Shown here piece by piece: positions 804-15,253 of a stretch of 64,000 bases of DNA (positions are counted from its first letter, which is position 1; every line of letters starts with the position of its first letter). Origin of the DNA: Bacteroidota bacterium (GTDB lineage: Bacteria; Bacteroidota; Bacteroidia; Bacteroidales; UBA4417); assembly GCA_037142075.1 (NCBI GenBank), contig JBAXBJ010000013.1, positions 6,228 to 70,227 of the forward strand. Reading direction: 5' to 3'. Both the position numbers and the translations under genes were made by a program. The notes beneath the pieces were generated by a model that had not been told where the DNA came from, did no database searches, and saw nothing but the letters and a program-made list of their open reading frames with translations.

Positions 804-1913
804 CTACTTGTTCACTACGGTTAAAGAACCCGCTTTGCTTGTTACCGAAACATGCGAAGTGCCGGCTTTCCCTATTGCACCTGTTGCCTGTAAAGTTCCT
901 GCTTTGGCATTCAGCGTTTCTTTCTTGAGCTGGCTGTTGATGGCGGACGAAATATTCAGGTTGGTTTTAGCATCATACATCAGGTCCATGGAATAAGAAT
1001 CGGATGTGCCTAAACCGAGAAACAGATCGGTATATTCCGATTTGATAAAAATAGTGCGGAAATTTCGCGTGATACTGTTCAGTTTTAACTCACCGTATTT
1101 AGTGTTCAGGTTACAAGCGGTTTTCAGCTCGTTTATTTTGATGCGGGAGAATGATGCTTCGCCGCTCAGCGAAGAACACGATTTTACAGTAAGTTTGTCG
1201 CGCGACGAAACCAGTTCGATGGCATCTATTTCTTCAAGTTCGATAGTTGAGGAGCGGCTGTTCAGGTTTAGAGCGTTTGCTTTACGAAGTGTAAAATCGG
1301 AATAATTGATATTGAGTTGGGCGTTATCGGCATCCTGAATACTTGCCGATCCAAATTCGAGTTTCAGTTTCAATGCCCCGCTGAAATCACGTGCCTGTAA
1401 ATCGCCGTTCGCAAGAGTAATATCTACATTCGCTTTGTGGCTGTCCATATACACATTGCCAAATTTGTTCTCAATTTTGATGGCATTGGTAACAGGCATA
1501 TAGACAGTGTAGTTGATTTGCAGGTTGTTACTGGTATTTATTACCTGCCCGGCGTACGAAACCACATCCTTCCAAAAAGTGGCGCTGTTATCGTAAAATA
1601 CGGTGCGGGCACTTATTATATTTGCCGCTGATATCATTTCGCAGTCGATTGACGAAAGAATTTTTACCACTTTAGCTGCTTGTTTCGACTGCGCCGACAT
1701 GCTCACTTCAATACGCACCGAATCTTTTTCCCAGGGTAACACATTGATATTGCCGTATTTATTTGTTATCTGTACTACGGTCCCGCTTTTCAGTTTAAAG
1801 CTTTTACTTTGCTCGCGCTTTTCGGAGTAGGTTTGGGCGGCAAGAAACAGCGGAACCCCGATGATGAGCGCTATGATGTATAAGATTTGCTTTATACTGT
1901 TATTTGTTTCCAT
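804..1913 (-). CDS. DUF4097-like putative adhesin / beta-helix protein, last gene of the ECF sigma operon
   Basis: 369-aa ORF with an N-terminal membrane anchor (ILYIIALIIGVPLFLAA). It has repetitive beta-strand segments (VVQITNKYGNINVLPWEKDSVRIEV, GDLQARDFSGALKLKLEFGSASI) typical of DUF4097 proteins found after sigma/anti-sigma pairs. It lies 33 nt downstream of the anti-sigma candidate. Confidence 0.7.
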   Translation of the reverse strand: METNNSIKQILYIIALIIGVPLFLAAQTYSEKREQSKSFKLKSGTVVQITNKYGNINVLPWEKDSVRIEVSMSAQSKQAAKVVKILSSIDCEMISAANIISARTVFYDNSATFWKDVVSYAGQVINTSNNLQINYTVYMPVTNAIKIENKFGNVYMDSHKANVDITLANGDLQARDFSGALKLKLEFGSASIQDADNAQLNINYSDFTLRKANALNLNSRSSTIELEEIDAIELVSSRDKLTVKSCSSLSGEASFSRIKINELKTACNLNTKYGELKLNSITRNFRTIFIKSEYTDLFLGLGTSDSYSMDLMYDAKTNLNISSAINSQLKKETLNAKAGTLQATGAIGKAGTSHVSVTSKAGSLTVVNK

Positions 1914-1946
1914 GTTCGTTTTTCATTTATAAATGAGGAGTCGCAA

Positions 1947-2513
1947 TTACAGGTTCGTTTCAGCTGGTTTTTGCGACGAAGAACCTGTTGTGCTCTTCCG
2001 TAATTCGGTTAGTATCTGATCAAGAATTTCGAGTTTAACCCTGTACGACAGCATGATAGCCTCAATTACTTTTTCGTCGGCATTGCTCTGGGCGAGGTCT
2101 TTTTTTAATTCTGCATTATTCTTATCCATTTCGATGAATTCCTTTTTCAGGTCTTCGATAATCTCGGGATGTAATTTGGTATAAGTAGCAAGTTCGGTTT
2201 GTTTGTTTCCAATCTGGGAAGTGTAATAAGCTTCGGCATCCGAAAGTTCGCTCAATTCAGGGCTGGAAGCTACAGTTGGCGGGCTTACTGATTTTATTGA
2301 AGATTTATGGTAATCCAGATAGTCGTTCAGCAACCAGGCTGAAGCGAAAATGAGAATCGCTGCTGCCGCTTTCCAGGCGTAAGGTGCTATTCTATAATGT
2401 TTTACTGCTGGAAGTTCTTTTTCAACTTTATTCCAGGCCATCGAAGGTGGTTCGAGGTTGCTGAATGCGTCGGCATTCTCTCTGACGAATAATTCTAATT
2501 TATCTTTATTCAT
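1947..2513 (-). CDS. putative anti-sigma factor (single-pass membrane protein)
   Basis: 188 aa with a central TM segment (AWKAAAAILIFASAWLL). It starts 19 nt after the ECF sigma gene stop. The call rests on position and topology, not a diagnostic motif. Confidence 0.55.
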   Translation of the reverse strand: MNKDKLELFVRENADAFSNLEPPSMAWNKVEKELPAVKHYRIAPYAWKAAAAILIFASAWLLNDYLDYHKSSIKSVSPPTVASSPELSELSDAEAYYTSQIGNKQTELATYTKLHPEIIEDLKKEFIEMDKNNAELKKDLAQSNADEKVIEAIMLSYRVKLEILDQILTELRKSTTGSSSQKPAETNL

Positions 2514-2532
2514 TTTAATTTTCTTCTAAACG

Positions 2533-3093
2533 TTAAAGCAAGGGCATTGCAAGCATCGATTCTTTTACCAGTTGACGGGCACGCATGTACTGCGTTTTGG
2601 AAGTGGATTCCGAAATATGTAAAATCTCCGAAATCTCACTGTGATCGTAGCCTTCGAGGAGATAGAGCGAAAATATTACTCTTGCTCCTTCAGGTAGCAG
2701 GTTCATTGCTTTTTTCACCCTTTCGACACTCAGGTGTAATTCCTCTTCATCGATACTTTCATCAGCGACAGCTGGAACGTATAACTCTGTTATTTCTTCA
2801 TCTACCCAGTTTATCTTCCTCTTTTCGAGTGCATTAATGCATTTGTTGATAACAATTTTCTTCAGCCATGCTCCGAATGTCGATTCGAACCTGAACGATC
2901 CGAGGTGGCCGAAGGCGTCAATAAAACCTTCCTGCAGCATATCCCGGGCTTCTTCGGCATTGTTCATCATCCGGTAGCAGATATTATACATAGCTTTTGA
3001 ATACGAATTGTATAACTCGTTGTATGCCTTCCGGTTACCGGCTTTACATGCCTCAACCAGTTGCCTGTGTATGTCGAAATTCCCCTGGTTCAA
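2533..3093 (-). CDS. RNA polymerase ECF-type sigma-70 family factor
   Basis: 186 aa. Region 2-like segment: YNELYNSYSKAMYNICYRMMNNAEEARDMLQEGFIDAF. Region 4 HTH: GYDHSEISEILHISESTSKTQYMRARQLV. Confidence 0.9.
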   Translation of the reverse strand: MNQGNFDIHRQLVEACKAGNRKAYNELYNSYSKAMYNICYRMMNNAEEARDMLQEGFIDAFGHLGSFRFESTFGAWLKKIVINKCINALEKRKINWVDEEITELYVPAVADESIDEEELHLSVERVKKAMNLLPEGARVIFSLYLLEGYDHSEISEILHISESTSKTQYMRARQLVKESMLAMPLL

Positions 3094-3242
3094 GCTGCCG
3101 GCCCCGCGTTTTTAGTTATAATGACAGAATAAATTTATAAGGGTTGTAAAATTGGATTAAAAATAAATAATAAATCCGGCTCTGCTGATTTACCGGAACT
3201 AAACCGGAAACAACACGGTTATGATACGGTATTCTGGTATTG

Positions 3243-5255
3243 TTAAAATGAAGTTTTAAATCCGCAGGCACCACAAAATTTCGATCCGGGTTTTAAAGGA
3301 TTTCCGCATGAGGGACAGAATTTCGGTGCAGGCATAGGTGGAGGCGTTTGAGCCACAGGCTTTTGCTGGTATACATTTCCGACAGGCGAATCGACCGGCG
3401 AAACCGTGTATGGAGAATTCTGCATTTTTTTAAACCTGGTTTTTTTTCTCCGCCGAACCAACCCGGCAATTATTGCAAGTATGAATACGATACTACCGGC
3501 TAGCATAAATACCTGGCTGTGCAGGAATTTTTTCCAGCCTATCGCATCAGTGCTTCCTTCTTCAGGGATTTCGACAACTTTAACCCCCGGGGTGCTTTCT
3601 GCAATCAGCTGCCATTGCCTGCTCACTGCCTGAACATCAACTTCCGTTGTCGACGTAACGGTATTAAAGTCGGATGAAACCGATTCGCCCTGATGGATAG
3701 CAACCGATTCGCCGCTTTTGTTAAACTTGAGGTCAACATTTCCTTCCAGCAGATCGAGCTTCATGGTTTGTTCGCTGACAAAGAGCGAAAATCGGGTTCC
3801 CTTCAGCACCAGTCCGCAATCTTTCAGCTCAATAATGACCTCGCCTTCGCTGGTACTATGCCCGTTGAAATACAAATTCCCCTTATCAACATGAATCTTC
3901 ATTACTCCTGCATCATCTGACACAATTTTGAATTGTGTGTTCGGACCTGCAGTAAGTATCCCTTTTGGCAACAGGCTTAAGGTAAGGTTGCCTTTTTCGC
4001 GAACTACGTAGGTTGTGCCAATATAACTGGTGCCCAGTCGGGTATACCTGTCGCTATTAACCCGGCTCTGTTCTCCCCAGGGATCGATGTAGTATACAGA
4101 GTCATTAGCTGTAAGCACCTGGCCTAAGTAAGGAATGCTCTTTTTTACCAGACCTGTACCTCCACATTCAACAGTTTGTGCTCCAAGCGGAACAGCTTGT
4201 TTTCCATTAATCAATACTTCCTGATCCCCTTCATTGAGTTCGAAAGTATTGGGCCCGCAACAGGCCGCATGGGAGCCGTTATCCCCAACAACCACAGCTG
4301 GCAAGCCATTGATGTTTACACCTGCACTGCCATTTATATAGCCTACAGTTTTATGAGGACAGGCAGGACAACCATGCGCATCGGCTAAACAAATAGTATA
4401 GCAACCCGTGTGAGCATAAAGAGAGGCCTTTACAACCTCCACCGTAATCTCTTTTCTATATTCATTCCCCTGGGCGTCAATAGCCGTTAAAATAATTTTA
4501 TTCGATCCCGTTTTTTCAAATACGGGACTTGATAGGGGTCCATGGTCAGGTGTAAAACTTGCGGTTCCGCTCCACTTAATATCATTTGAAAGATCGACTT
4601 CGTTCTCGGTACCTTCGTTAAGTATGCAACTGGCTCCAAATTTCCAGCCTTTGTCGAAAACCCTCGGACTTTCCCCCAACGGGTATGTAAGTTGCAAACC
4701 TTCACCCGCCGAAAGCGAAGCTGTATAGGAAAGGAATTCGGTACCTCCGCCCTCTTCACTATTGGTAATAGTCAGTTTACCGGCAATCTGCGAACTGCTT
4801 CCGCTGGAAGTAATCTGGCCGGAAAGCCTGAAACTGACCTGCCCGGTTCCGTTCTGCTTGCCGTCGAGCATAATCAGGGTAGTTGTGCCGGGCGCACTAA
4901 AAGAAGTTCCATGCAATTCCCCATTAAAAGTGCCTGTAAAATGAACATATTCCTCATGTTTCTCTGACGACCCTCCTACAAAATTGAGCTTGCCGCTTAC
5001 TACTCCCGATTTATCAATCGAAATAGTAAGTTGATTTTCATAATAAGCAACACCTTTGGCTGAACCAGGAGGCAGCGAGAATTTCCCTTTGTAAAGACCT
5101 TCCGTCTGCGCTTTTAACTGCAAGCTACAGCACAGGATAATAATAAAAACCGGAATAAGTGATAATCGGATACTGCCTTTACTTTTCGTTTTTGCACAGC
5201 TCATAGCTTTACAGATTGGAAAAGTAAATGTATAAAAAAAACAAATTCGTGACAT
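3243..5255 (-). CDS. single-pass membrane protein: signal peptide, PAAR-like domain, FecR-like domain, TM, C-terminal zinc ribbon
   Basis: 670-aa ORF; the start may be M18 at 5204. The signal peptide ends in ..CCSLQLKAQ. PAAR-like segment at about nt 4140-4425: AHGCPACPHKTVGYINGSAGVNINGLPAVVVGDNGSHAACCGPNTFELNEGDQEVLINGKQAVPLGAQTVECGG. FecR-like segment at about 3696-4013. TM: VFMLAGSIVFILAIIAGLV followed by RRRKK. Zinc ribbon: CPSCGNPLKPGSKFCGACG. Confidence 0.85.
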   Translation of the reverse strand: MSRICFFYTFTFPICKAMSCAKTKSKGSIRLSLIPVFIIILCCSLQLKAQTEGLYKGKFSLPPGSAKGVAYYENQLTISIDKSGVVSGKLNFVGGSSEKHEEYVHFTGTFNGELHGTSFSAPGTTTLIMLDGKQNGTGQVSFRLSGQITSSGSSSQIAGKLTITNSEEGGGTEFLSYTASLSAGEGLQLTYPLGESPRVFDKGWKFGASCILNEGTENEVDLSNDIKWSGTASFTPDHGPLSSPVFEKTGSNKIILTAIDAQGNEYRKEITVEVVKASLYAHTGCYTICLADAHGCPACPHKTVGYINGSAGVNINGLPAVVVGDNGSHAACCGPNTFELNEGDQEVLINGKQAVPLGAQTVECGGTGLVKKSIPYLGQVLTANDSVYYIDPWGEQSRVNSDRYTRLGTSYIGTTYVVREKGNLTLSLLPKGILTAGPNTQFKIVSDDAGVMKIHVDKGNLYFNGHSTSEGEVIIELKDCGLVLKGTRFSLFVSEQTMKLDLLEGNVDLKFNKSGESVAIHQGESVSSDFNTVTSTTEVDVQAVSRQWQLIAESTPGVKVVEIPEEGSTDAIGWKKFLHSQVFMLAGSIVFILAIIAGLVRRRKKTRFKKMQNSPYTVSPVDSPVGNVYQQKPVAQTPPPMPAPKFCPSCGNPLKPGSKFCGACGFKTSF

Positions 5256-5373: not shown

Positions 5374-6357
5374 TTAAAACAACCCCTTCACCAACTCATC
5401 AACTGTAAGCTTCGCGAAATAGTCCGGGATGTTAAATGAGGAAACTGCTTTACGGATGGCTGATTCCTCATGAGGAATATTAGCCAGCACATCTTCGATT
5501 TCTTTAGGATCAGCATGTGAAAAATAATCTCCGAAAATACGCGCCTTAGTAATCACCCCATTCTGCACGTCCATGCAAAATTCCATGGTGCCGCTGTGTT
5601 CGGTGCGCACTATCTTGCAGAAATTATACGCGGGCGAATTGCCAAAATTCCAGTCCCAGGTACCGTATTTTGATTGCACCATATCTTCAATTACCTGTTC
5701 ATCCTGCCGGGTAAGTTCATAAAATAGGGCATCAGGATACATGCTAACGATATATCTTTCGATGAGTTCCGAAAATCGTGTCACATCCATCGCCTGATGC
5801 AAATGTTCGCTGATATTGGTAACACGGCTACGGACCGATTTCACGGCTTTATCCTGGAATTTCGCTTCGTTCACTTTCAACGCCTGGCTTAAGTCGGTCA
5901 TGGTTGCAGAAAACAGCAGGGTGCCATGATGTAAAACGCGGTTTTTCCACACCATTTCAGCATTACCGGAGAATTTTTTTCCTTCAATCGTGAGGTCATT
6001 ACGGCCTTCGAAACGGGCATCAATTCCAAGTTCTTTAAGAACATCGAGGATAGGTTCGGTATATTTCCGGAAATCGTTCAGTGTATGATCCTTGCTGGAT
6101 TGAATAAAAGTGAAATTCAGGTTCCCCAGGTCGTGAAACACAGCACCTCCGCCTGTAAGCCTGCGCACCACGCAAATATTGTTTTCCTTAACATAATCGA
6201 TGTTGATTTCTGAAAGGGTATTCTGATGCTTCCCGACAATAATGGCTGGTTCGTTACGCCAAAGCATAAAAATATCCTCTTCCGTTTCTTTCAGAAAATA
6301 TTCTTCAGCGGCGAGATTAAAATAGGGATTGGTATGATGACGCTTAACAATTAACAT
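5374..6357 (-). CDS. lplA: lipoate-protein ligase A
   Basis: 327 aa. The N-terminus (NPYFNLAAEEYFL) and RRLTGGGAVFHDLGNLNF, GRNDLTIEGKKFSGNA are characteristic LplA catalytic-domain motifs. Confidence 0.9.
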   Translation of the reverse strand: MLIVKRHHTNPYFNLAAEEYFLKETEEDIFMLWRNEPAIIVGKHQNTLSEINIDYVKENNICVVRRLTGGGAVFHDLGNLNFTFIQSSKDHTLNDFRKYTEPILDVLKELGIDARFEGRNDLTIEGKKFSGNAEMVWKNRVLHHGTLLFSATMTDLSQALKVNEAKFQDKAVKSVRSRVTNISEHLHQAMDVTRFSELIERYIVSMYPDALFYELTRQDEQVIEDMVQSKYGTWDWNFGNSPAYNFCKIVRTEHSGTMEFCMDVQNGVITKARIFGDYFSHADPKEIEDVLANIPHEESAIRKAVSSFNIPDYFAKLTVDELVKGLF

Positions 6358-6576: not shown

Positions 6577-7473
6577 ATGTTTTTAAGTGTCATTGGAATT
6601 ATTGTAATTGTGATCGGTTTTGTCCTTGTCCGGACGGAATCACCATTCAGACCTTATGCCGGTATAGTCAGGATTATCGGCTTTCTGGCTGTTTTAATCG
6701 GGGCAGGCCTGTCGGCTGTGCAACAAATTGAACCCGGCTACGTGGGTGTTCAGAAACTTTTTGGTAAAGTGAACAACAATACCCTCGAGAGTGGACTTAA
6801 TATTATAAATCCATTGGTAGAAGTTGTAACCTTTGATATCCGCACACAAAACTATACGATGTCGAGTGTGCACGATGAAGGCGACAAAGCCGGCGATGAT
6901 GCCATTCGCGTGCTTTCGGCTGATGGTCTCGAAGTAATCATCGATCTTACCGTTCTTTATAAAGTGGTTTCCAACGAAGCTCCGCGCATTTTGAAAGAAA
7001 TCGGAACTGATTACAGGAATACCATCGTTCGTCCGATTTGCAGAACTAAAATCAGGGACAATGCAGTTTATTACGATGCAGTTGCCCTGTATTCGACCAA
7101 ACGCGATGAATTTCAGGCGAGGATTTTTAAATCCATCGAAGGTGATTTTAAGAGCAGGGGATTAATACTTGAACAACTTTTAGTCCGGAACATCACGCTT
7201 CCTGCTTCGGTGAAAACTACCATTGAATCGAAAATTAACGCCGAACAGGATGCGCAAAAAATGACCTTCGTTTTACAGAAGGAAAAACAGGAAGCCGAAC
7301 GTAAACGCGTTGAAGCACAGGGAATTGCCGATTATCAGAAGATTCTTAGTACCGGGCTGAGCGACAAACAGTTGCAATACGAAATGATAAAGGCTATTGC
7401 GACTTCCCCCAATGCGAAACTGATAATTATGGACAGTAAAAAAAGTGCTCCTTTTATTATTGATGCGAAATAA
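6577..7473 (+). CDS. SPFH/band-7 (prohibitin/HflC-like) membrane protein
   Basis: 298 aa with an N-terminal TM. It has an SPFH core (VQKLFGKV.. LNIINPLVEVVTFDIRTQ) and a C-terminal coiled coil (EKQEAERKRVEAQGIADYQK). Confidence 0.85.
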   Translation: MFLSVIGIIVIVIGFVLVRTESPFRPYAGIVRIIGFLAVLIGAGLSAVQQIEPGYVGVQKLFGKVNNNTLESGLNIINPLVEVVTFDIRTQNYTMSSVHDEGDKAGDDAIRVLSADGLEVIIDLTVLYKVVSNEAPRILKEIGTDYRNTIVRPICRTKIRDNAVYYDAVALYSTKRDEFQARIFKSIEGDFKSRGLILEQLLVRNITLPASVKTTIESKINAEQDAQKMTFVLQKEKQEAERKRVEAQGIADYQKILSTGLSDKQLQYEMIKAIATSPNAKLIIMDSKKSAPFIIDAK

Positions 7474-10987: not shown

Positions 10988-11232
10988 GATTCAATTTACA
11001 TTATGTGAATAATTTCGTTTTCTGTTGACGCTGCAAAAGTATTCATATTTATACATATTTTAAAAGAATCGACTTAAAAACCTGCATTTATTACGACTTA
11101 ACAGTGAATTCACAAGTTCCGGATTTCGAAAGGCCATATACTCCCGATTTTGTTTTCAAAACCGGGAATGCTGAATTTAAATATGGTACTTTTATCTTAG
11201 CACCCTATCCTTCTCAAATCCTTTAAAAATGC

Positions 11233-11240
11233 TACCTTTG
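11233..11240 (+). promoter_or_regulatory. Bacteroidetes -7 promoter element TAnnTTTG (TACCTTTG) upstream of leuS
   Basis: Exact match to the Bacteroidetes sigma-A -7 consensus, 65 nt upstream of the ATG at 11305. Confidence 0.5.
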
Positions 11241-11304
11241 CACACTTCTTCCAAATCCATAGGAAGTAGCTTAAGTGATTAATCTGAAACAATTTACAAT
11301 TTTC

Positions 11305-14300
11305 ATGGAATATAATTTTAGTGAAGTTGAGAAAAAATGGCAAAAGCAATGGGCTGCCGAAAAAGTGAATAAAACCGAAATCGATACCCGGAAACCAAAA
11401 TTTTATGTGCTCGATATGTTTCCGTATCCTTCGGGCGCCGGTTTGCACGTCGGTCACCCGCTTGGGTATATAGCTTCCGACATTTACGCGCGTTACAAGC
11501 GTTTGAAAGGTTTTAACGTTTTGCACCCCATGGGTTACGATGCATATGGACTTCCTGCCGAACAATACGCAATTCAAACCGGCACGCACCCGGCGGTTAC
11601 CACCGAAATAAACCTGGCGCGTTACCGCGAACAATTGGACAAAATCGGGTTTTCTTTCGATTGGGATCGTGAGGTACGCACCTGTGATCCCGATTATTAC
11701 AAATGGACGCAATGGACTTTCATTCAGTTGTTTAATTCGTGGTACAACAAAAAGACAGATAAAGCAGAGGCAATCAGCCAATTAATTGATATTTTCAATA
11801 CGGAAGGGAATGCCCGGGTTTTGGCGGCCTGTAATCCGACTCCTGCATTTACTTCGGAGGAGTGGGAAGGGATGAGTGAGAAGCAACAACAGGAAATTCT
11901 GCTGAACTACCGCCTGGCTTACCTTGCCGAAACGGCTGTAAACTGGTGCCCTGCATTGGGTACAGTGCTTGCCAACGACGAGGTCAGCGAAGGACGTAGC
12001 GTGCGCGGCGGGCATCCGGTTGAGCGTAAACAAATGAAACAATGGCTGTTGCGTATTACTGCATATTCCGACCGTTTGCTAGGTGGTCTGAATACAATTG
12101 ATTGGACGGAATCGATTAAAGAAATCCAACGTAACTGGATTGGTCGCTCCGAAGGGGGGAGCATGCGTTTTAAAGTTATTGACCTCCCCCTGACCCCCTC
12201 CAAGGGAGGGGGAACCCCAGACATGCTCGTCCTTGCTGAAATCGAAACGCATACAAGCCACAGGTATAATTATATGACTACCGACCCTCATTCCTTTAGC
12301 TTGTTGAACGAAAGAGCAAAAAAAATGAGAAAGCAGCTTACCGAAGCTGAGAAAATTATTTGGGAGAAACTTCGGAAAAAGCAGATCAAATATAAGATTC
12401 GCAGGCAACAGATTATTGACAAATATATAGTTGACTTTGTTTGTCTTCCTAAAAAAACAATTATCGAAATTGATGGTCCAATCCATGATTTTCAAAAAGA
12501 TCTCGATGAAAATAGAACTAAATACCTGAATGCTTTAGGATATGAAGTATTGAGGTATAAAAACGAGGATGTTTTTGCTGATGCCGAAAAAATTGCGCAA
12601 GAAATTGCTGACTTTCTCGATGGTAAAGTCCTCCCCTCCGGGGAGGATTTAGGAGGGGTTTTACCCCAACTTGAAATCGAGGTTTTTACAACCCGCCCCG
12701 ATACCATTTTTGGTGCCACTTTTATGGTACTTGCACCCGAACACGAGCTGGTTTCGAAAATTACGACTCCTGATTTCCGCGAAAAGATTGAAACCTACGT
12801 AAATTGGGCTAAAAACCGTACCGAACGCGAACGCATGACCGAAGTGAAAAAAGTCAGCGGCGAGTTTACAGGTTCCTACGCTGTAAATCCGTTCACGGGT
12901 GCGCCCATTCCCATCTGGATTGCCGATTATGTGCTGATGGGATACGGAACCGGTGCCATCATGGCTGTTCCGGCGCACGACAGCCGCGATTTTGCTTTTG
13001 CACGCTATTATAATTTGCCCATCGTACAGGTCGTAAATAAACCCGGTCACGAGGCTACCGATCCATCAACCTGGGAAGAATCCTACGATTCTAAGGATGG
13101 CATAATGATCAATTCGGGATTTATTGATGGAATGCAGGTGAAGGAAGCCATCAGCACCGTGATCCGGGAAACCGAAAAACTTGGAATCGGACAAGGGAAA
13201 ATAAATTTCCGTCTTCGTGATGCCATTTTCAGCCGTCAGCGCTATTGGGGTGAGCCTTTTCCTGTATATTACAAAGAGGGAATGCCCTATACCTTGCCCG
13301 AAGATCAGCTGCCACTGCTTTTACCTGAGGTGGATGCATACCTCCCGACTGAAAATGGAGAACCTCCGTTAGCCAGGGCTAAAAACTGGGTGACAACCGA
13401 TGGTTACCCGCTTGAAACCAATACTATGCCTGGATTTGCCGGTTCGAGCGGGTATTACCTGCGGTACATGGATCCGCGCAACGACCATGAATATTTCTCG
13501 AAAGAAGCCGTAAACTACTGGCAAAATGTGGATTTGTATATCGGTGGAGCCGAACATGCCACAGGCCATTTGCTTTATGCCCGTTTTTGGAATAAATTTC
13601 TTTTCGACCTTGGCTATTCCGTTATGGATGAGCCTTTTAAAAGATTGATTAACCAGGGCATGATTCAGGGTCGTTCGAGCTTTGTGTATAGGGTGAATCC
13701 TGAAAAGATGGCCGAATATATTCTTTGGGAAAAGATCAAAGATAATAAACTGGGTGTGAGTTTCGAACGCGATTTTAAGGACGGAACTCGTAAATTCGAT
13801 TTTTTCAGCCTTGAGGCGAAGCTATTAATTGAAATTAAAAGACAAAAATCGCTCGAAAAACTTGTTGACCCTTACGAAGCCTATGCCGCCGAAAAGGGCT
13901 ATAAATTAATTCTCATCCCGATGATTGACTTTGTTGACGGAGGTGTTGATAAAGTTGTTGAGCGTATTGCGTCAGCTATTAAAGGAGACGATGTACCTGC
14001 ATTTGTTGAGAAGGAGGGCTGGGAAAATATTCCGATTTTTGTTTCAAAGAATTATCCCGGGCGCGAACATTATTCCGATCCCCTGCACGTTGATATAAGC
14101 TTGGTTCGAAACGATATTCTTGATATTGAAGCTTATAAGAACTGGCAGTCACACCTGGCAGATTCTTATTTCATTCTCGAAGATGGCAAATACATCTGCG
14201 GAAGCGAAGTCGAAAAAATGTCGAAATCGAAGTACAATGTGCAGAATCCTGACGATCTGATCGAACGTTACGGGGCCGATACCCTTCGTTTGTACGAAAT

Positions 14301-14898
14301 GTTCCTTGGTCCGTTGGAACAATCAAAGCCATGGGATACCAGTGGAATCGAAGGCGTTTTTCGTTTTATACGTAAATTCTGGCGCTTATTCCACGATTAC
14401 GATGTTAACTTTATAGTCTCTGACGAAGCTCCCAGCGCAGCTGAATTAAAGGTTCTGCACAAGACGATCAAAAGAATACAGGATGACACCGAACGTATTT
14501 CATTCAACACGGCGGTCAGCAGTTTTATGATTTGTGTAAACGAGCTTACCGAACTGAAGTGCAACAAGCGAGCTATTCTCAGCGAACTGGTCATTCTTAT
14601 ATCCCCTTATGCACCTCATATTGCGGAAGAGCTATGGCAACTTCTGGGCAACAAAGAGAATGTCTGCAAAGCCAGTTTTCCCGAATTTAATGCTGCTTTT
14701 ACCATCGACAATACGTATGCTTATCCCGTATCCTTTAACGGGAAAACACGTTTCACACTTGAATTGCCGAAAGATATGCCGGCTGCTGAAGTAGAGAAAG
14801 CCGCATTGAACGCTCCCGAAGCACAGAAATGGCTGAATGGCGCGCCACCTAAAAAGGTAATTGTTGTGCCGGGGAAGATTGTGAATGTAGTGGTGTAA
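11305..14898 (+). CDS. leuS: leucine--tRNA ligase carrying two in-frame nuclease-like insertions
   Basis: The canonical N-terminus [16 protein letters not shown] starts at the ATG at 11305; the track start GTG at 11275 is less likely. LeuRS motifs present: HIGH-type [14 protein letters not shown], editing-domain [32 protein letters not shown], and KMSKSK. Length is 1197 aa versus 860 aa for E. coli LeuRS. Confidence 0.95.
12175..12669 (+). mobile_element. in-frame DUF559 (Vsr-like PD-(D/E)xK endonuclease) cassette inside leuS
   Basis: The core [75 protein letters not shown] matches the DUF559 pattern. It is bounded by 8-bp GC hairpins at 12194-12212 (CCCCCTCC-aag-GGAGGGGG) and 12629-12647 (TCCTCCCC-tcc-GGGGAGGA). 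An internal in-frame ATG lies at 12274 (MTTDPHSF). Confidence 0.6.
13696..14030 (+). other. second leuS insertion, degenerate PD-(D/E)xK-like module before the KMSKS loop
   Basis: The segment [45 protein letters not shown].. repeats the D-F..(L/I)IEI(D/K) and GY.(V/L) pattern of the first insert. It lies between the conserved [14 protein letters not shown] and [21 protein letters not shown]. Confidence 0.4.
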
Positions 14899-14902
14899 TT
14901 CC

Positions 14903-14951
14903 GGGAGAAGTGAGGGGTGACAGGGCGAGGGATGAGGAGCGATAGGGCCTG
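14903..14951 (+). repeat. purine-rich heptad-phased element (class GTGACAG/GCGAGGG) directly after the leuS stop
   Basis: GGGAGAA GTGAGGG GTGACAG GGCGAGG GATGAGG AGCGATA GGGCCTG. Related elements lie at 24834-24903 and 63479-63520. Confidence 0.7.
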
Positions 14952-15253
14952 TGAAAAAGCAAAAACTGCAAGGTCTGTCAATCAATCACTAAGTCCAGTT
15001 TATCAATAGTTTATGAAGATTGATAATCGGGATAGGAAATTAGGGTCTTATCTTTTAATTTGATGTTTTTTCGAGTATACCATTCGTTAAGGAATTAAAA
15101 ACATTAAACATTGAACACAAAATGTAAAAGTATTGTAAGCCCTTTACTTTTTCATTCTTAATTTAGTGTTTTATGTTTTGAGTTCTTTTTTGGGCCTGGC
15201 TAGTCCAGGTTAGGACCTTTCTAATTCGAAAATGTATCCCTTTTTGGTTAAAG

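Follow-up and report, generated by a model that had tools for sequence, protein, structure and literature searches.

Homing endonuclease genes are generally thought to persist in essential genes only by way of self-splicing introns or inteins. An intein is recognizable by a Hint splicing domain with blocks A, B, F and G and by its junctions, which carry Cys or Ser at the N-terminal side and His-Asn followed by Cys, Ser or Thr at the C-terminal side. A different arrangement is found in REPIN-RAYT systems, where repetitive extragenic palindromic (REP) hairpins flank the gene for an HUH/Y1 tyrosine transposase. We know of no member of the DUF559 family of putative nucleases whose substrate has been characterized. 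Vsr, DUF559 and DUF2726 form one PD-(D/E)xK clade in published classification (PMC3424549), and nucleases of the DUF559/EDxHD type occur inside introns and inteins (PMC3239194, PMC9403480). The Rickettsia palindromic elements (RPEs), at about 150 bp, encode no enzyme (Ogata et al. 2000, as reviewed in PMC10969869). Here we describe a DUF559 cassette that lies in frame within leuS, the gene encoding leucyl-tRNA synthetase (LeuRS), in a 64,000-nucleotide stretch of DNA from a Bacteroidota bacterium (Bacteroidales, UBA4417; assembly GCA_037142075.1, contig JBAXBJ010000013.1). This whole stretch is referred to as the window.

In the list of open reading frames (ORFs), leuS runs from 11275 to 14898 on the forward strand and encodes 1207 amino acids (aa); the product matches the NCBIfam model TIGR00396 (leuS_bact) with 917 bits. 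The listed GTG start is probably 10 codons too early, and we prefer the ATG at 11305 because homologues begin there with M(E/D)YNF, which in the window reads MEYNF. The protein is about 270 aa longer than the shortest related Bacteroidales LeuRS (about 915-940 aa). To compare this gene with its relatives we used an alignment of leuS from 80 loci of related genomes, from which one locus (L039) was left out for a frameshift; counts over aligned relatives refer to 79 loci.

The alignment with T. thermophilus LeuRS (1H3N) defines the position of the insert, which we call site 1. The 5' host flank (12127..12183, forward strand) consists of a strongly conserved LeuRS motif followed by a beta-strand and aligns through residue 236, while the 3' flank (12670..12714, forward strand) contains the conserved TTRPDT, which we take to be the threonine-rich editing-site motif of LeuRS, and resumes the alignment at residue 240. 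The insert thus occupies the position of residues 237-239. Because the alignment halts and restarts at these residues, site 1 is placed by homology in a surface beta-hairpin turn upstream of TTRPDT, at the N-terminal edge of the editing domain, which begins at aa 467 according to Pfam. Two of the most conserved LeuRS motifs flank it. Comparison of filled and empty alleles showed that the insert takes the place of a turn of about three residues after RFKVID; in the insert-free locus L005, for example, this turn is VENKPSLEPIEV and the empty-site DNA includes GTTGAAAACAAACCTTCACTGGAGCCA. Since insert-free relatives keep just a short turn here, we set the bounds of the cassette at about 12184..12669 (forward strand; 486 nt, 162 codons), comprising a left linker, a DUF559 domain and a right linker. 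The original prediction, made from the window's sequence, had the conserved LeuRS segments about 20 aa apart when no insert is present, whereas the distance is actually about 3-7 residues in insert-free relatives. It was correct that the insert keeps the leuS frame: 12175-12669 is open within the single frame 11275-14898. The GC content of the insert core is 36% as opposed to 45% in the remainder of leuS. An assembly artefact was ruled out by independent assemblies (P0121, 97% identical; L086, 96% identical over the insert).

The core of the cassette (12274..12630, forward strand) is a DUF559/Vsr-like PD-(D/E)xK nuclease domain. The insert alone matched Pfam PF04480 with 119.6 bits (E=7.2e-35, cut-off 20.6 bits) over model positions 4-108 of 109, far above the family threshold, and this bears out the assignment to DUF559 that had been made from the sequence by eye. 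Within LeuRS the Pfam match spans aa 345-448, with an envelope of aa 334-452 for the hidden Markov model, and the NCBIfam DUF559 model NF007294 concurs. The DUF559 profile in turn matched PDB 3HRL with E=4e-38 and 3R3P, the catalytic domain of I-Bth0305I, with E=6.7e-5. The family-invariant set of DUF559 (T, E, W, R, Q, D, E-x-D-G, H, R, R) is complete in the window copy, including the D of VDF, E-x-D-G and the H of EIDGPIH. All 12 of these residues, among them the predicted catalytic D, E-x-D and H, are kept in 36 of 37 LeuRS-resident copies; the sole exception, L011, has a domain truncated at the N-terminus, D replaced by I, and neither of its hairpins left. When the whole protein was modelled with AlphaFold2 (mean predicted local distance difference test score, pLDDT, of 73), the nuclease domain scored 82-90.

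The ATG at 12274, where the domain begins, is present as the original prediction stated. Its reading as a retained former start did not stand, because the free-standing homologues that we examined begin upstream of GY(I/M)TTDP and this codon aligns to the Ile/Met inside that motif. The domain belongs to the same family, and has the same invariant residues, as free-standing DUF559 proteins such as NGO0050 of N. gonorrhoeae (PDB 3HRL) and the YcjD type of E. coli (NF007294), but these are encoded by separate genes whereas the window domain is nested in the frame of another protein. The closest homologues outside LeuRS are free-standing proteins of about 100-170 aa with no more than 53% identity, and many free-standing homologues carry at one terminus a peptide of the type encoded by the hairpins described below (SPNPSKGG, PSPEERG, PPSPARGEG). 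With the EDxHD homing endonucleases (I-Bth0305I; PMC3239194) and with Vsr, the cassette shares a Vsr-like fold, the conserved D, E-x-D and H, and the match to the 3R3P profile. On the other hand, I-Bth0305I possesses N-terminal NUMOD/helix-turn-helix modules and resides in a group I intron, while the cassette domain is only about 120 aa long, has about 30 residues N-terminal to its core and is not accompanied by an intron. Pfam detected no NUMOD or helix-turn-helix DNA-binding domain in the insert, just a short helical N-terminal extension.

The domain is bracketed by a left linker (12184..12273, forward strand), which varies among relatives and is poorly conserved in the alignment, and a right linker (12625..12669, forward strand), whose module recurs in relatives and in the remnant at L047. 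Both are predicted to be disordered, and in the AlphaFold2 model the hairpin-coded flanks had pLDDT values of 25-48 (model residues 295-325; residues 442-454, about 35). The two GC-rich hairpins that had been reported to bound the insert, and their translations, proved exact. The left hairpin (12194..12212) is CCCCCTCC-AAG-GGAGGGGG, translated PLTPSKGGG, and the right one (12629..12647) is TCCTCCCC-TCC-GGGGAGGA, translated LPSGEDLGG; each has eight perfect pairs and a loop of 3 nt. An extra GGAGGGG at 12652-12658 is able to pair with CCCCTCC at 12633-12639. We scanned all 64 kb of the window for GC-rich hairpins with stems of at least 7 bp and loops of 3-6 nt, and used 20 shuffles of the window as a control. 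Only these two hairpins were found, compared to 0-1 in each shuffle (mean 0.2), and a chance origin was thereby excluded.

Hairpins of this kind accompany the nuclease elsewhere. A hairpin of at least 6 bp is present on one or both sides of 32 of 34 DUF559 copies in all contexts, and in the loci of the 79 relatives the C/T-rich hairpins (CCCCTCC, CCCTCCCC, CCCCTCTCC) lie inside site-1 inserts or make up the mini-inserts described below, with the single exception of L036. In five cassettes (L017, L021, L027, L091, L092) the left and right hairpins are exact reverse complements of each other, even in the loop. The homologous hairpins of relatives have lineage-specific stems in which pairing is preserved: five of the eight pairs show compensatory C:G to T:A changes (25 cells, compared to 7.1 +/- 2.1 after shuffling, with none of 500 shuffles as high). 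The modules are almost free of stop codons over all six frames (4 stops in 912 codons, where about 43 were expected), and one hairpin type is read in differing frames depending on the lineage, as PLSKGEG or as PSPQERGE, with the linkers remaining open. The hairpins are part of the element. Like a REPIN-RAYT unit, it sets a single small enzyme gene between inverted GC-rich hairpins that also occur alone as dispersed repeats; unlike REPIN-RAYT, its enzyme is a PD-(D/E)xK nuclease instead of an HUH/Y1 protein and its copies lie inside coding sequences.

The site-1 insert is distributed patchily. Of the 79 aligned relatives, 13 carry an insert at site 1; in most of the others the loop is short and empty, with 15 residues over the stretch compared. 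The unaligned locus L039 also carries a DUF559 copy at site 1; its leuS, on a 1.68-Mb contig, changes frame near the 3' end (nt ~6070-6100, with query aa 1122-1207 in frame 2), possibly through an assembly or sequencing error. A second in-frame insert, which the original prediction missed, is located at 13696..14037 (forward strand; aa 808-921) just before KMSKS, in what is presumably the leucine-specific domain of LeuRS, and it encodes a diverged domain of the DUF559 fold. We refer to its position as site 2. All four combinations of the two sites were found among LeuRS whose host columns are at least 85% identical to those of the window: both filled in the window itself, site 1 only in L002 and L004, site 2 only in L005-L008, and neither in L038. 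The insert is therefore not universal in the LeuRS of this phylum. On a neighbour-joining tree of the host gene the site-1 carriers fall in at least six separate places. In a public protein collection, a site-1 DUF559 domain was present in 23 of the 120 closest LeuRS; the sources name those carriers plainly as leucyl-tRNA synthetase or leucine--tRNA ligase, and the DUF559-in-LeuRS domain architecture is already visible in precomputed database annotations.

The same cassette was also found outside LeuRS. With the insert and a free-standing homologue as seeds, two small scans of genomes returned 20 distinct DUF559 loci, which we characterized by ORF inspection and Pfam; as exact-word seeds taken from single sequences bias the sample to close relatives, no frequency can be read from these scans. 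Copies nested at LeuRS site 1 were present in L086, L087 (on the same contig as L002), L003, L088, L089 and L094 (Flavobacteriales). Others were nested in isoleucyl-tRNA synthetase (IleRS; L095), in a TsaB-like protein of the TsaB/TsaD family (L093), in a Type ISP restriction-modification enzyme (L090, with several tandem SPNPSKGGGQD hairpin modules as well), and in full-length MetH (L092, L096), whose activation domain is split; in the L096 copy the catalytic motif has decayed and hairpins are absent. A third MetH case, on the metagenomic fragment L081, has hairpins at both ends. The full-length nested copies that we examined were open and in frame in every case in LeuRS, IleRS and the TsaB-like protein and in two of three in MetH. 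In L081 the MetH frame has a stop at nt ~818-823 (GIRPAPG*PAQPDH), at a position where E. coli MetH presumably has Tyr, and a sequencing error or a pseudogene is possible.

Taken together, we consider that the insert is probably (we would put it at roughly 60%) a selfish DNA cassette of the homing-endonuclease type that is tolerated in frame without splicing. This cassette would consist of a DUF559 nuclease frame bracketed by short GC-rich palindromic hairpin modules, and it would use the expression signals of its host gene, being transcribed and translated within LeuRS and spliced at neither the RNA nor the protein level. The hairpin modules would supply Pro/Ser/Gly-rich disordered linkers with almost no stops in any frame. 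Because these linkers are open and disordered, the nuclease would fold as a separate tethered lobe and the synthetase would keep working. The nuclease may then promote the copying of its own gene into empty alleles, through gene conversion induced by a break or nick, and now and then into new sites that are permissive or bear hairpins. Copies that no longer spread would decay by losing hairpins and catalytic residues, or would suffer deletions that leave short in-frame remnants of hairpins only; alternatively, they might reach fixation and remain as a resident domain, for which site 2 is the example. Such an element resembles inteins with homing endonuclease domains in being an in-frame, nuclease-bearing selfish insert between conserved motifs of an essential gene, and the patchiness and the decayed copies fit a homing cycle as they do for inteins. 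It differs from them in lacking a Hint domain and splice-junction residues and in evidently staying in the protein by means of flexible linkers.

The original prediction had concluded that an endonuclease cassette landed in, and is tolerated by, an essential synthetase. This is supported by our data and survived those of the proposed refutation tests that were run, and the landing is made more credible by the presence of the same hairpin-flanked cassette both free-standing and in frame in other host genes. The event was not recent, however, as synonymous sites are saturated between carriers and the divergence of the insert follows that of the host. The ratio of nonsynonymous to synonymous substitution (dN/dS) is 0.06-0.18 for the DUF559 core as compared to 0.03-0.07 for the host gene, while dS exceeds 1 in all pairs; dating by dS was ruled out by this saturation. 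Given saturated dS, low dN/dS and a divergence that tracks the host, the sequences indicate that the insert is an old resident maintained as protein.

Several observations weigh against a homing cassette. Insert identity drops in parallel with host identity, and the domain tree is poorly resolved, with group A monophyletic in just 23 of 100 replicates. For these two reasons long vertical residence with repeated losses, which could account for a large part of the patchiness with no recent homing at all, is a serious alternative. A single origin of the LeuRS copies was rejected, in that they formed a clade in none of 100 bootstrap replicates, but support at the deep nodes does not suffice to establish multiple captures. 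No target-site duplication or recognizable target sequence was found at empty sites, nor any trace of a hairpin at the empty alleles of the window's clade. Searches of the 64-kb window (tblastn and hairpin scans) found no sibling cassette apart from the diverged site-2 domain in leuS. Single loci of other genomes (L082, L083, L090) hold several copies. The domain does not have the N-terminal DNA-binding modules of I-Bth0305I, and site specificity is puzzling for so small a nuclease. The 99% pairing of the stems is partly circular because the hairpins were picked for being hairpins; the informative evidence lies in the double changes, together with stems that are perfect at homologous positions although dS is saturated. 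A domain that benefits its host would likewise be under strong purifying selection and have its catalytic residues intact. Finally, we infer nuclease activity, its target, homing and the presence of the insert in the mature protein from sequence, and for translation into the mature enzyme and nuclease function in particular this tempers the case.

One possibility is that the domain is domesticated, that is, a DUF559 module captured long ago now serves LeuRS, for example as a lobe for nucleic-acid or tRNA binding or for regulation, or moonlights in DNA repair, and has ceased to be selfish. Low dN/dS and conserved residues intact in 36 of 37 copies would be expected in this case, as would an insert that tracks host divergence over saturated dS, which means long residence. 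Both insert sites are, we assume, near the parts of LeuRS that approach the tRNA. Vsr-like folds may also serve in RNA-associated roles, since mitoribosomal proteins are found among the structural neighbours of the site-2 domain (those of Toxoplasma and Tetrahymena). Nevertheless, most relatives lack the insert, among them LeuRS that are 86-88% identical to that of the window, and the same cassette occurs in unrelated hosts (MetH, IleRS, the TsaB-like protein and the Type ISP enzyme) and as a free-standing gene. Decayed and internally deleted copies exist; L011 and L096 are decayed copies that have lost motif residues as well as hairpins. Moreover, the domain sits on predicted disordered linkers and is not packed onto the enzyme, and the residues that are conserved are those of a nuclease active site and not of a new surface. 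We regard domestication as an unlikely account of the insert. It may apply to site 1 and is plausible for site 2.

The case for site 2 is a distinct one. Its likeness to the site-1 insert is weak (27% identity), but a profile comparison with hhalign gave a probability of 98% (E=1.4e-13) and PF04480 matched 15 of 16 members. Modelled alone, the domain had a pLDDT of 89, and its best Foldseek matches were 3HRL (template modelling score of 0.73 on the target) and then 3R3P. The catalytic motif has changed to FDF...IEIK (D...ExK) from the VDF...EIDG..H of DUF559, and the insert has neither hairpins nor predicted disordered linkers. An exhaustive search of 1.84 billion representatives found no free-standing member of the site-2 subtype, only LeuRS fragments and canonical DUF559 (E ~1e-4). 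As an argument for domestication, the changed motif, the missing hairpins and linkers and the failure to find free-standing kin concern site 2 specifically. Site 2 is also patchy: it is filled in at least nine places on the host tree, and L043, L044 and L076 hold remnants of it with internal deletions. We read site 2 as a probable older colonization that has by now become a resident, altered domain.

[quoted passage not shown] Hairpin pairs without an ORF do exist in frame in other LeuRS loops. L016 (nt ~5597-5680) and L017 (nt ~5573-5645) have in-frame inserts of 29-33 aa, each consisting of a spacer with two hairpins and lying just before KMSKS, between FILE and DGKY, and L018 (nt ~3145-3230) has a similar in-frame hairpin pair between AKNWV and YPLE; the pairs with their spacers therefore occupy at least two further LeuRS loops. 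These mini-inserts are about 95-100 nt long, and the spacers of L016 and L018 are alike. At L083 (nt 1500-5160) a free-standing DUF559 gene lies between rsmH and ftsL in the dcw operon, and ORF-less hairpins of the same type, CCCTCCCC-TCAA-GGGGAGGG, are found within rsmH as well as in two spacers, ftsL-ftsI and ftsI-murE. At L082 (nt 2287-4358), four two-hairpin modules alternate with DUF559 genes, three in tandem and each of 130 aa, between genes for an asparaginase and an amidohydrolase. The exactly inverted left and right hairpins of five cassettes and the hairpin peptides at the termini of many free-standing DUF559 proteins point the same way. At site 1 of L047, however, half of the left hairpin is followed by ADDFK and the right module VLSSGEDLGEV, which is a cassette with its core deleted. 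Because the 3' end of the DUF559 ORF is retained there, this mini-form is a deletion remnant and not a virgin target. To our knowledge, Vsr-like nucleases do not act as transposases. A hairpin-first origin is in our judgement improbable, and it overlaps a homing cassette more than it excludes one.

The mini-inserts also invite comparison with the RPEs and with in-frame MITEs, as in each case palindromic DNA is found in frame in unrelated housekeeping genes and is translated at tolerated positions. L016, L017 and L018 are directly comparable to RPEs. The 486-nt long form is not, having a conserved nuclease ORF under purifying selection, and it belongs to a different phylum and repeat family. 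The description as a non-autonomous short form fits L016, L017, L018 and L047 only.

As for removal of the insert from the product, an intein was rejected on three grounds. Pfam found no Hint or intein family at E<=1 in the whole protein or in the insert. The junctions ...KVID|LPLT... and ...VLPQ|LEIE... (D|L and Q|L) have the wrong residues, in agreement with the original prediction, and the approximately 45 residues outside the nuclease are too few to form a splicing domain. An intron was rejected as well, as the host frame is kept through the cassette and no Rfam covariance model matched in 11000-15200 in E-value mode, apart from one sub-threshold small-RNA match of 17 bits (gathering score 37). 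An unrecognized intein-like, intron-like or ribosome-bypass element that is removed before the mature enzyme is formed, with the hairpins marking its boundaries, would suit the position between highly conserved motifs of an essential gene, the structured GC hairpins at both ends and the known residence of DUF559/EDxHD-type nucleases in introns and inteins (PMC3239194, PMC9403480), but these negative tests, together with linkers that remain open despite the differing frames in which the hairpins are read, make it very improbable, as an element removed or bypassed at the RNA level would not need an open frame.

The components of the cassette are known: DUF559 and Vsr-like nucleases, essential genes that harbour homing endonucleases, and palindromic repeats lying in frame, as in Rickettsia (PMC10969869). 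Their combination, an in-frame nuclease cassette in housekeeping enzymes that has no intein or intron and has hairpins coding for its linkers, was not described in the searchable literature, in which few subscription-journal papers were covered. There is a substantial chance that this is a distinct class of element. It could be speculated further, at rather less than even odds, that it represents a new autonomous selfish class, a read-through homing cassette of essential genes whose nuclease also mobilizes the REP/MITE-like hairpins of Bacteroidota and which is a recurrent source of domains, with site 2 as a fixed example. Such an element could colonize essential genes with neither an intron nor an intein, since its palindromic ends would at the same time code for linkers free of stops. 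The nuclease cassette appears to persist by a third route, in frame in a surface loop and with its own flexible linkers from near-stop-free hairpin ends. If this is true, it would add another mode in which selfish DNA can inhabit core genes, would suggest a testable biological role for the large uncharacterized DUF559 family, could tie that family to a family of GC-hairpin repeats, and would provide a direct route by which a selfish element becomes a new protein domain of housekeeping enzymes, aminoacyl-tRNA synthetases among them. In practical terms, the cassette marks the over-long LeuRS, IleRS and MetH genes of Bacteroidota assemblies as probably real and not mis-assembled, and points to naturally permissive insertion loops in these three enzymes.

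Of the nine other loci from the genome scans, seven were free-standing, namely L091 (Paludibacter), L106 (Bacteroidetes) and, outside Bacteroidota, L107, L109-L111 and L113, while L108 and L112 looked disrupted. A phage origin of the domain was rejected, as just two distant matches were found among 50,697 phage records. In the 286-aa protein P0104 a DUF559 ORF continues through the hairpin-coded peptide PLPNPPHKGEGI into GFTLIELL, which has the look of a prepilin-type N-terminus, all within one called gene. Downstream of the insert-free leuS of L041, three hairpins of the form CTCCGCCC-TGAA-GGGCGGAG are located at nt 6708, 6933 and 7127 and belong to an unrelated REP-like family.

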